From positions 46,197 to 110,196 of the forward strand of contig CAYHBB010000037.1 of NCBI GenBank assembly GCA_964354795.1: a stretch of DNA of 64,000 nt. The letters run 5' to 3'. A program made the translations under genes and the position numbers. Source of the stretch: an uncultured Planctomycetales bacterium (lineage in GTDB: Bacteria > Omnitrophota > Gorgyraeia > Gygaellales > Profunditerraquicolaceae). Positions 40,535-48,812 of this stretch are shown in pieces. Within the stretch, counting starts at the first letter, position 1. The number at the start of each line of letters is the position of its first letter. The notes beneath the pieces are model-generated. The model saw nothing but the letters and a program-made list of their open reading frames with translations. It made no database searches and was not told where the DNA came from.

Positions 40535-40581
40535 AAAGGGGACGGTTCTAATTTAACGAGAAATAAATAGAGCGTCCCCTT
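40535..40581. repeat. Copy 1 of shared hairpin motif AAAGGGGACGGTTCT ... AGAGCGTCCCCTT (imperfect), downstream of ORF6N gene and upstream of galT pair; terminator-like
   Basis: Seen directly; first ~28 nt identical to the copy at 41184. Confidence 0.5.
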
Positions 40582-40600
40582 ATACGCTTTTCCAGACAAT

Positions 40601-41122
40601 CTATCTTTTTACCCTGAATCCATCAACCACCCGCTTCGCCTCATCAGGAGTAATCCTCAGCTGACGAATCGCTTCAAATATATCGTGAATATTTTTATCA
40701 TGCTTTTCGACCTTATGCTCAAGCTGATTTAACTTAGCAGCAAGCTCCTTATGGGTAGACAAAATCTGACGTAGCCTTACGAACGCGCGCATAACAGCAA
40801 TATTAACCTGAATAGCGTTTTCACTATTAAGAACGGATGACAACATTGCTGTTCCTTGCTCCGTAAAAGCGTAAGGCAAGGTAGAAGAATGTTTCAAAGG
40901 ACTGAACCGGTCGCAAATTGCGACCAGTTCGATTTTCTCAGCCGGCGTAAGCTGAAACATAAAATCTTCCGGAAATCTCCTAATATTCCTTTTCACCTGC
41001 TCATTCAACCTTTTCGTCGGAACACGATAAAGCTCGGCTAAATCTCGATCGAGCATCACCTTCCTTCCCCTTAACACAAAGATGCGTGTAGCTACTGCTT
41101 CTGCTGGGACTAAATTTGACAT
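40601..41122 (-). CDS. ORF6N (KilA-N-related) domain DNA-binding protein, phage antirepressor-like
   Basis: N-terminal ~110 aa (RIFVLRGRKVMLDRDLAELY ... VMRAFVRLR) matches the ORF6N pattern; AAAGGAGG SD upstream. Confidence 0.7.
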   Translation of the reverse strand: MSNLVPAEAVATRIFVLRGRKVMLDRDLAELYRVPTKRLNEQVKRNIRRFPEDFMFQLTPAEKIELVAICDRFSPLKHSSTLPYAFTEQGTAMLSSVLNSENAIQVNIAVMRAFVRLRQILSTHKELAAKLNQLEHKVEKHDKNIHDIFEAIRQLRITPDEAKRVVDGFRVKR

Positions 41123-41187
41123 GGCTTCCTCCTTTTACTTTAATAGACGTAAAAGATGGCGAAATCTAACGAAAATATATGTAAAAT

Positions 41188-41236
41188 AAAGGGGACGGTT
41201 CTAATTTATGGTGAAATAAACAGAACCGTCCCCTTT
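41188..41236. terminator. Perfect 15-bp-stem hairpin AAAGGGGACGGTTCT-N19-AGAACCGTCCCCTTT flanked by T/A runs; bidirectional terminator-like. Copy 2 of the shared motif
   Basis: Seen directly in the sequence. Confidence 0.55.
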
Positions 41237-41261
41237 ACTTATTATTTTGCAGACCTCTATT

Positions 41262-41492
41262 TTATTTCACAAAATTCCCCTTCTTACTACTAACCGCCTT
41301 AGTAAAGATACATATAATTCGATAGACAACATACAATAAAACAAAGAAAATCAATATTAAATACAAAGGAATACCTAGCAATTCTACACCACCCATTAAA
41401 AGTGGATCATTATAAAAACATCTTGCTAATAGAAAAGCAAATAGAAAAAAAATCATTATAATTAACACCTCTCTAATTATACCTCTTCTCAT
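41262..41492 (-). CDS. Small 2-TM membrane protein (76 aa) immediately downstream of the Rhs toxin; candidate immunity protein
   Basis: Two hydrophobic helices; position 53 nt after the toxin stop; very AT-rich. Confidence 0.45.
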   Translation of the reverse strand: MRRGIIREVLIIMIFFLFAFLLARCFYNDPLLMGGVELLGIPLYLILIFFVLLYVVYRIICIFTKAVSSKKGNFVK

Positions 41493-48186: not shown

Positions 48187-48188
48187 AG

Positions 48189-48722
48189 CTATTTTGGCGC
48201 TGCTACAGGTTCACGGAAAATGCAGTAATCGCCTTTCTTAGTCCATCCAGCAGAAAGGCCGTAGTCATCCCTAACATATAGGTAAGTATTTTTGACCCCA
48301 CTGAAAGGGGTTTTAAAAGTAATACACCACTTTATGGTAAGAGTGTTTCCCGAGCCAGCGTAAGTCGTAAAAAGACAGCTGAGCTTTACGTATGAATTCT
48401 CAACGGTATAGCCGCTTTTAGGAGCATATCCGCCCAGCCATTTAGTATTCGCGTCATCGCGCAGATACAATTTGTTGGTATTCTGGTCATAGTAGGCGTA
48501 AAAACACCTGGCTCCTCCGATAGAACTATCGATGAGGAAATAAGCATACTGAATATTTTTCCAACCGTTGGGGTCAGAATACGTTGTAGTGAAAGTTATG
48601 GCTTGATTTGAAGTAGAATAACCGATAGCAGGAGAAACAGTGCCCAAGGAAGGAGCTGAATTTGCAGCTAAGGCGCTACTGGTGAAAAGGAAGATTAGCA
48701 AAAATAAGGCAAGACGCCTCAT
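48189..48722 (-). CDS. Small secreted protein (signal peptide, beta-rich, Tyr/Thr-rich), first gene of the toxin operon; function unknown
   Basis: MRRLALFLLIFLFTSSALA signal; AAGGTGG SD; stop 3 nt before the toxin start. Confidence 0.5.
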   Translation of the reverse strand: MRRLALFLLIFLFTSSALAANSAPSLGTVSPAIGYSTSNQAITFTTTYSDPNGWKNIQYAYFLIDSSIGGARCFYAYYDQNTNKLYLRDDANTKWLGGYAPKSGYTVENSYVKLSCLFTTYAGSGNTLTIKWCITFKTPFSGVKNTYLYVRDDYGLSAGWTKKGDYCIFREPVAAPK

Positions 48723-48755
48723 GATTACACCACCTTTTTATTACACAACTAGAGG

Positions 48756-48784
48756 ATTATACTGCGGTTTTCAAGCAGATTCAA
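48756..48784 (-). promoter_or_regulatory. Near-consensus sigma70-type promoter TTGAAT-17-TATAAT upstream of the secreted-protein/Rhs-toxin operon
   Basis: Minus-strand reading of 48756..48784; -10 lies ~33 nt upstream of ATG 48722. Confidence 0.45.
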
Positions 48785-48794
48785 CAAGAAAAAT

Positions 48795-48812
48795 AGAACC
48801 GTCCCCTTTATT
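48795..48812. repeat. Half-copy of the shared hairpin motif (AGAACCGTCCCCTTTATTT) immediately upstream of the toxin-operon promoter
   Basis: Seen directly in the sequence. Confidence 0.45.

Follow-up and report, generated by a model that had tools for sequence, protein, structure and literature searches.

Introduction

To our knowledge, repetitive extragenic palindromic (REP) sequences, the hairpin-forming doublets that they build (REPINs) and the REP-associated tyrosine transposases (RAYTs) have been studied as systems almost only in Pseudomonas and enterobacteria. In the described systems of Gammaproteobacteria, REPs are found singly or paired as inverted doublets, which fold into long hairpins; most of them lie shortly behind genes, and the Y1/HUH transposase gene is flanked by inverted copies of a clade-specific repeat (PMC2817692, PMC3116915, PMC3479197). 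RAYT groups span many bacterial classes (Bertels et al., PMC5581495). Here we analyse a stretch of 64,000 nucleotides from an uncultured Candidatus Omnitrophota bacterium (contig CAYHBB010000037.1; the whole stretch is referred to as the window), in which a short repeat lies at three intergenic sites around an ORF6N-domain gene and an island encoding a large RHS-type toxin. These sites very probably belong to a REP/REPIN family, as two REPINs (A and B) and one REP singlet (C), and represent recognition sequences of a RAYT.

The repeat shares with the described systems the singlets and the inverted doublets folding into long hairpins, the placement mostly just downstream of genes and, in related loci of other genomes (numbered with the prefix L), the Y1/HUH transposase gene with inverted repeat flanks, the clade-specific repeats and a best structural match to TnpArep (4ER8). 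It differs in that the GTAG tag is absent and the single unit is an A/T stem around a conserved GGGGACGGTTC core, a weak palindrome, and in that its hosts are Omnitrophota, Nitrospirota, Desulfobacterota, Planctomycetota and Saccharibacteria. Inheritance also appears to differ, as it is described as strictly vertical for Pseudomonas and E. coli, whereas here the 16-nt core is common across phyla and RAYTs of different phyla reach 88% identity, which suggests horizontal spread.

Among published descriptions, that of a second group comes closest. The sections of Di Nocera et al. (2013, PMC3733652) that we draw on here describe, from genomes of 2013 including Acidobacteria, Stenotrophomonas and others, RAYT-like genes flanked by GGGGWSAS terminal inverted repeats (TIRs), termed TIRtrons or TIRYT, some of which form dispersed, moderately abundant families of dimers. 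With these our repeat shares inverted copies at a fixed distance, a sequence that is not of the GTAG type and a repeat that can overlap the 3' end of the gene; GGGGACGG fits the GGGGWSAS core at 7 of 8 positions, and the variant GGGGACAG of a related locus (L153) at all 8. Membership of the GTAG/CGTC REP superfamily was rejected, as no GTAG stands by the arms and CGTC lies inside the reverse complement AACCGTCCCC and is not the end tag of a short palindrome; lacking this tag, the element fits the TIR type with the GGGGWSAS core as given in those sections. Hosts among Omnitrophota and Saccharibacteria, and a -35 box built in at offset +6, do not form part of the TIRtron description there.

Results

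Three repeat sites in the window

An exact scan of the window for the motif AAAGGGGACGGTTCT gave matches at 40535-40549 (+), 41188-41202 (+), 41222-41236 (-) and 48795-48809 (-), four copies against a chance expectation of 0.09, and none of 100 shuffled sequences held four or more. An earlier note on this DNA had placed the motif at these three sites, as is confirmed here, and its count of four arm copies holds for the intact arms but rises to five once a decayed arm is included. The sites comprise two inverted doublets, at 40530-40585 (REPIN A) and 41183-41240 (REPIN B), and a single copy at 48790-48813 (REP C). The perfect 15-bp stem with its 19-nt loop, given before for 41188-41236, was borne out, as was the imperfect hairpin at 40535-40581; the loop of the former holds an inner 5-bp stem, and the second arm of the latter has decayed to GGGGACGCTCT, its orthologous arm being intact in the 94% relatives L142 and L143. 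Folded as RNA, REPIN B reaches -33.4 kcal/mol on the minus strand (z = -7.6) and -32.8 kcal/mol on the plus strand and REPIN A -24 kcal/mol (z = -3.6), and the single arm at 48795 gave no fold above the shuffled background (z = +0.5). On the transcribed (minus) strand both doublets read as strong hairpins followed by UUUAUUUU, with UUUAUUUUAC after the hairpin of REPIN B.

REPIN A and REPIN B are 82% identical over 56 nt and share an identical run of 26 nt (40530-40555 and 41183-41208), which had been put at about 28 nt. The 15-bp motif also proved too short as the unit of the repeat, the conserved unit common to all three sites being of about 24 nt, AAATAAAGGGGACGGTTCTAWTTT. When 117 copies from other genomes were combined into a profile, it matched all four intact arms (E = 2e-9 to 2e-7) and revealed no further copy in the 64-kb window, the next best match having E = 1.3. 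The features are collected in Table 1.

Table 1. Repeat arms of the window, as read here, and the features that adjoin them.
Feature	Position	Strand	Basis
REPIN A, first REP arm AAATAAAGGGGACGGTTCTAATTT, intact	40531..40554	+	exact motif; profile E = 1.6e-7
REPIN A, second REP arm TATAAGGGGACGCTCTATTTATTT, decayed	40561..40584	-	sequence read; imperfect pairing with first arm
REPIN B, first REP arm	41184..41207	+	exact motif; profile E = 1.7e-7
REPIN B, second REP arm AAGTAAAGGGGACGGTTCTGTTTA	41217..41240	-	exact motif; profile E = 3e-8; 15-bp pairing
REP C AAATAAAGGGGACGGTTCTATTTT, single, without partner arm	48790..48813	-	exact motif; best profile match of the window, E = 2.1e-9
Promoter-like site TTGAAT, 17 nt, TATAAT, directly after REP C and ahead of the 177-aa/RHS operon	48784-48756	-	consensus scan, 10/12
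ORF6N-domain gene, between REPIN B and REPIN A (context only)	40601..41122	-	Pfam PF10543, E = 1.9e-30
177-aa gene, RHS/SpvB/TcdB toxin gene (2213 aa) and 76-aa gene, REP C to REPIN B (context only)	41262..48722	-	open reading frames, Pfam

A repeat family across phyla

A scan with TAAAGGGGACGGTTCT over one genome per species matched at least 119 stretches, and the matches, in more than 119 places, come from more than ten phyla, mostly from Candidatus Omnitrophota. By record titles and among the matches listed, about 41 loci belong to Omnitrophota, about 18 to Desulfobacterota and about 17 to Nitrospirota/Thermodesulfovibrionia, with Planctomycetota, Aminicenantes, Elusimicrobia, Saccharibacteria, Clostridia and Bacteroidales as further hosts. 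About 80% of the listed matches carry an extended consensus, with an A/C-TTT-A/T-T continuation and A-rich bases before, and are therefore not those expected by chance. An inverted partner arm lies within 160 nt in 53 of the 119 listed loci, at widely varying spacer lengths, the remainder being single arms. Several copies per genome are common, and the Omnitrophota metagenome-assembled genome (MAG) JAPLLY01 holds at least 13 sites. The related copies are intergenic, at a median of 28 nt past the upstream stop codon; their co-directional, convergent and divergent gene contexts did not differ clearly from background.

When viral contigs were scanned with the 15-mer, 16 single matches were found, all of them except L009 without the extended consensus or a partner arm, a pattern in line with chance, so the repeat is not phage-borne. 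In Rfam, searched with the region at a permissive threshold, only generic hairpins (plastid 3'UTR, miRNA precursors) came up, all below threshold, and no known RNA family matched; a search of the full-text literature for the motif string returned one unrelated paper.

Three further observations concern the repeat itself. In seven loci (L019, L062, L095, L144, L146, L097 and L102) REPs are adjoined by "stuttered" series of nested, incomplete copies of the repeat's outer end, such as ATTAAAGGGG three times ahead of a full copy in L062, or ACCTAAAGG, ACCTAAAGGGGA and ACCTAAAGGGGACA ahead of a full copy in L095. The pattern resembles the outcome of abortive cutting and rejoining, repeated at this end of the REP. 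In Bacteroidales (L118, L047, L135 and L089; Muribaculaceae MAG JAKSMA01), the core is found within the loop of another hairpin, ATGGCTAAAG-GGGACGGTTCT-CTTTAGCCAT, and this placement suggests that a single REP unit is an A/T-stemmed hairpin presenting the GGGGACGGTTC core. The REPs of JAPLLY01 (L038 4510-4580 and 1520-1590; L112 ~7440-7500) are followed by a long and perfect palindrome, GTAGACCTACGCGGTCTACATATATGTAGACCGCGTAGGTCTAC, which recurs in three places or more and may be a second, GTAG-containing repeat family of that genome.

A RAYT flanked by the repeat

All-against-all clustering of the open reading frames (ORFs) of the 119 listed loci revealed a single family specifically adjacent to the motif, a RAYT at a median distance of 81 nt, the remaining recurrent clusters being common domains or orthologous neighbours. 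In L070 the RAYT is an ORF of 236 residues with an IS200-like HUH motif (NHVH) and a GHFWQDRYKS motif, enclosed by two inverted copies, and a tblastn search with this ORF found homologues in 14 of the 119 motif-selected loci. Complete RAYTs flanked by inverted copies are present in Nitrospirota (L070), Omnitrophota (L040), Saccharibacteria (L023) and Planctomycetia (L090). In the first three, the start codon is preceded at 30-90 nt by a copy in gene orientation, while the inverted copy stands at the stop codon or just past it, and in L090 there are REPINs on both sides.

The assignment to the RAYT family is supported by several comparisons. Five of the proteins score above the cut-off of Pfam Y1_Tnp (55-66 bits versus 23), and NCBIfam REP_Tyr_transpos is matched with E = 2.3e-21 and 76.2 bits, just under its cut-off of 80. 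Compared with solved structures, the family profile gave E. coli TnpArep (4ER8) as its best match (E = 4.8e-7), ahead of TnpA of the IS200/IS605 type; the search of solved structures with the single Omnitrophota sequence returned nothing. The NHxH motif and the conserved tyrosines are invariant in the alignment. The Omnitrophota clade of this RAYT comprises more than 100 clusters at 60-87% identity, annotated just as "transposase".

We also approached the association from the protein side, searching metagenome contigs with the RAYT alignment alone and keeping 80 loci. The motif, with at most 1 mismatch, was present at 8 of the 14 loci whose RAYT is at least 39% identical to that of Omnitrophota (among them L144, L145 and L148-L152), and at none of the 66 loci below 39% identity; by our estimate, a match of this quality has a chance of about 0.007 per locus. 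Inverted motif flanks were found at the RAYTs of L144, L148, L149, L151 and L152, and L203 carries a variant with 2 mismatches, GGGGACGTTTCC, in the expected place. Different inverted repeats flank the RAYTs of L146, L153, L154, L156, L176 and L210, for instance GGGGACGCTCCCC in L146, AAAGGGGACAGATTTATTTT in L153 and GGGACCGTTTCCC in L176. Other RAYT clades thus have other repeats at the same positions, indicating that the repeat changes with the enzyme. Furthermore, all four RAYT loci fetched by exact protein look-up (L224-L226 from Omnitrophota, L227 from Planctomycetia) carry the motif about 84 nt upstream of the start codon and, about 10 nt past the stop codon, a second copy in inverted orientation.

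The copies of the window therefore match a repeat family of many genomes, in which RAYTs are flanked by inverted copies and the repeats are specific to transposase clades. The profile matches, together with the RAYTs flanked in inverted orientation in relatives, are what leads us to read the three sites as a REP singlet and REPIN doublets.

The RAYTs of L022 and L070 are 88% identical, and binning assigned their genomes to different phyla; this points to horizontal spread or, possibly, to an error of binning. In one RAYT clade of Nitrospirota and Desulfobacterota (L070 3330-3346, L046, L022, L062, L121 and L031) the right REP extends over the 3' end of the gene and supplies the codons for the final residues of the transposase, ...GWRKNKENRPL*. 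An apparently conserved ORF of 29 residues over the motif in six loci was accordingly rejected as a gene, being really this RAYT C-terminus. In the Omnitrophota locus L226 (1-10675), a protein of more than 4000 residues with RHS-repeat, Laminin_G and Peptidase_C39 domains and two small genes are encoded immediately upstream of the REP-flanked RAYT.

The sites in their genomic setting

In the order of transcription, this part of the window reads fmt, a gene for a 146-residue repeat protein, REP C, the genes for a 177-residue protein, the RHS/SpvB/TcdB toxin and a 76-residue membrane protein, REPIN B, ORF6N, REPIN A, two galT-like genes and GAPDH. By a rough greedy ORF call, 56 of 57 ORFs lie on the minus strand and are tightly packed; the GC skew is negative throughout. 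The doublets follow stop codons by 16-25 nt, and 62-69 nt separate the elements from the next start codon, in agreement with the 65-70 nt reported before. Only eight intergenic gaps in the 64 kb reach 80 nt, and three of these contain the repeat.

All named homologues of the galT-like protein at 76-79% identity are from Candidatus Omnitrophota, which places the organism in this phylum, and relatives were compared across the interval between fmt and galT. In L138 and L139 (86% galT identity) the order is priA, fmt, a 132-residue protein, a 108-residue ORF, galT, galT and GAPDH, the RHS block is missing, and no copy of the repeat was found at the junction or anywhere in 21 kb. The 132-residue protein of L138 is a homologue of the 146-residue protein of the window (36% identity, same repeats), and the 108-residue ORF (L138 2149-2475) is a truncated and diverged remnant of the ORF6N C-terminus (46% identity). 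The 79% relative L141 has other genes in the interval, including a polysaccharide deacetylase. The closest relatives, L142 and L143, have an intact REPIN exactly where REPIN A lies, some 15 nt ahead of the conserved promoter of galT, and the gene that precedes this REPIN is unrelated to ORF6N, so that the doublet is older than the ORF6N gene or independent of it; in L142 this gene ends in ...LLDTYVMQYTKV and is antitoxin-like by eye. The presence of REPIN A in the 94% relatives and its absence from the 86% relatives would fit a gain as well as a loss, and the neighbouring genes differ too. The fmt-to-galT interval (40463-48814 of the window) is a variable spot for accessory genes in this Omnitrophota lineage. 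That the repeat sites lie around the toxin and ORF6N genes is explained by this variability and by the sites occupying three of the eight large gaps of a compact window, and not by a role as borders.

Some features of the window stand apart from the repeat. The tandem galT-like paralogues (DUF4931/DUF4921/HIT; 38438-39433 and 39434-40462) have no gap between them, and the pair is conserved in relatives. The 146-residue protein (48815-49255) is secreted-looking and has repeated G-x-S-S-G-N-F-D units. A second pair of repeats, 89% identical, lies at 38335-38379 and 53649-53693 on the minus strand, each being a hairpin CCGGCC-N9-GGCCGG followed by TGTTGYGCTTTCTGCRCAAGGAG, with no match in Rfam; the two members stand directly ahead of the ribosome-binding sites and start codons of GAPDH and a gmhB-like gene, respectively, and may represent a 5' leader common to both or a terminator combined with a leader.

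Weighing the alternatives

Several observations weigh against assigning the three sites to a REP/REPIN family. No RAYT gene was found by tblastn within the 64-kb window, so in this particular organism we infer the cognate enzyme, and the window holds three sites only, the high copy number having been seen in other genomes. Across the L224-L227 stretches (14 to 21 kb each) the repeat is confined to the flanks of the RAYT gene, and the transposase may thus be present in some hosts that have no population of dispersed repeats. The single REP has just a weak internal palindrome and, unlike classical REPs, no GTAG tag, and REPIN B has a longer loop than is usual in classical terminators, exceeding the limit of a simple terminator scan that did not flag it. 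The REPs are presumed to be mobile, and terminator activity is a prediction.

The earlier note had put forward common terminators, att-like island borders and ORF6N binding sites as explanations, a REP/REPIN repeat with a cognate RAYT not being among them. Ordinary intrinsic terminators that share the preferred stem of the genome, with no mobile element involved, would account for the strong hairpins with U-rich tails of both doublets on the transcribed strand, for their position shortly past stop codons and for the clustering of related copies at the same place; the G+C-rich base of the stem and the U-rich tract that follows are those of intrinsic terminators and, since the element is symmetrical, it could work in both directions. 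However, identity over 16 to 24 nt across more than ten phyla cannot be convergence, about half of the listed loci, like 48790-48813, consist of a single arm unable to form a hairpin, and inverted copies of the sequence stand on both sides of the genes of one specific transposase clade. The long 19-nt loop with its inner stem is a further difference from intrinsic terminators. Terminators as the sole explanation are already contradicted, and we consider this reading very unlikely; the terminator-like hairpins followed by UUUAUUUU, and the median of 28 nt past the stop codon, stand as observations, but they belong to one repeat family with its own transposase. The alternative that the copies are direct repeats of att type, produced when the toxin island and the ORF6N gene inserted site-specifically, has in its favour that the copies bracket accessory genes, that ORF6N has a full copy on each side, both in direct orientation, that a homologue of it in L123 also lies between two direct copies, and that the RHS block and full-length ORF6N are missing from the 86% relative. 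Yet the island has no integrase or recombinase gene, as judged from its ORFs and Pfam, and where island-free relatives would retain one copy, L138 and L139 have none. In the 94% relative the doublet still stands ahead of the galT promoter, with another gene preceding it, and the motif adjoins unrelated genes in more than 100 loci. The occurrence at more than 119 places in many phyla, at many unrelated 3' ends of other genomes and without a link to an RHS island, speaks against att-like borders, which we regard as highly improbable.

Operator sites for the ORF6N (KilA-N-like) DNA-binding protein encoded between the copies would explain why this gene is flanked by the repeat both in the window and in L123 (289-1352, an ORF6N homologue between two direct REP singlets, Omnitrophota), and why L119 has two homologues (8-2599) within 1 kb of a copy. 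These two loci are, however, the only ones of the 119 motif-selected loci with an ORF6N homologue, against 14 with a RAYT; ORF6N is absent from the recurrent families beside the motif, of which the RAYT is the sole specific one, the motif is present in phyla and loci without ORF6N nearby, and the repeat co-varies with RAYT clades and not with ORF6N. Binding sites of this protein are thus extremely unlikely to be the explanation. Inverted arms around a variable spacer also resemble a minimal miniature inverted-repeat transposable element (MITE), and L052 has an IS4-like transposase between two copies, as would be expected if the motif were the terminal inverted repeat of a classical DDE insertion sequence. 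The L052 element (740-2320; 489 residues) nevertheless has its own ends, GAATGGCGCTAGTTTAAGG, and has inserted into a REP arm, where it duplicated 11 bp of the target, AGAACCGTCCC, and is therefore a guest and not the parent of the repeat. Moreover, no DDE transposase recurs beside the motif, whereas the Y1 transposase does, and we give the MITE reading an exceedingly small chance. The REP-targeting insertion sequence ISPpu9 of Pseudomonas putida (PMC8450116) is similar to this guest, which belongs to a related locus and not to the window.

Three other classes were tried and set aside. An integron attC site does not fit in sequence or structure, as the stems are perfect with no bulged bases, GTTCTAA/GTTCTAT does not conform to GTTRRRY and there is no integrase nearby. 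For a DNA uptake sequence there is no evidence, the motif being tied to a transposase, and the repeat bears no resemblance to a tRNA 3' end, as a tRNA-derived att site would.

Repeats beside promoters

The promoter-like site beside the copy at 48795 (Table 1) is near consensus, as had been described, although promoter-like sites are not rarer than chance in the region (41 found versus 32 expected). At the RAYTs of L224-L227 the left REP is followed by TTGACA at offset +6 and then by a -10 box, so that the promoter of the RAYT abuts its own recognition sequence. TTGACA stands at +6 in 11 of 138 arms, compared with at most 2 at most other offsets, and 8 arms have it at +22. In the window the -35-like box follows REP C at offset +10, versus +6 at the RAYT genes, and the likeness may be one of layout. 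A REP with TTGACA at +6 and a -10 box was seen in L224/L225 (9917-10000), L226 (9928-10000), L227 (3517-3605), L070 (2581-2635) and L108 (66-150 and 734-823), and in L108 the REP-plus-promoter precedes a HicA/HicB pair and another small gene.

A broader idea is that the REPs and REPINs of Omnitrophota and neighbouring phyla go beyond selfish repeats and act as portable gene-boundary modules, the doublet as a two-way terminator and the singlet, with a built-in -35 box, as a promoter, and that they may also be shared recombination points at which accessory cassettes are swapped between genomes. Such cassettes may include the RHS toxin block, ORF6N genes and toxin-antitoxin pairs, loosely like those of integrons. 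Hints in this direction are ORF6N between copies in the window and in L123, the HicAB pair and the next gene of L108, each preceded by a copy with a promoter, the doublet kept before galT despite differing upstream genes, and the RHS-like giant gene adjoining the RAYT in L226. We regard the idea as improbable.

Discussion

The basic unit that emerges is a REP of about 24 nt, RAATAAAGGGGACGGTTCTMTTTWT, two of which in inverted orientation around a short variable spacer form a REPIN. A RAYT encoded elsewhere in this Omnitrophota genome would bind the single-stranded REP and copy or move REPs and REPINs into intergenic DNA. Once transcribed, a REPIN would form a long hairpin with U-rich sequence flanking its base, whichever strand is read: as the REP starts with AAATAAA (UUUAUUU on the opposite strand), the doublet reads as a hairpin followed by U-rich sequence on either strand. 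REPIN B is predicted to terminate or stabilise the transcript of the RHS operon, probably, and REPIN A likewise that of ORF6N.

New here are the host range (Omnitrophota, Saccharibacteria and others), the exact repeat, its retention across phyla while the RAYT diverges to 35-50% identity, and the 88% identity of RAYTs whose genomes were binned to different phyla. The repeats of the window tempt one to read them as the borders of an island, and this is replaced here by a tested REP/REPIN reading, which extends REP/REPIN-RAYT systems to Candidatus Omnitrophota and, through the related loci, to Saccharibacteria, Nitrospirota, Desulfobacterota and Planctomycetota. For annotation, the repeats account for many spurious small ORFs (...ENRPL, ...EPSPL) and contig breaks in MAGs. 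A recognition sequence of 16-24 nt that is kept while the transposase falls to such low identity is a natural data set for the study of RAYT recognition.

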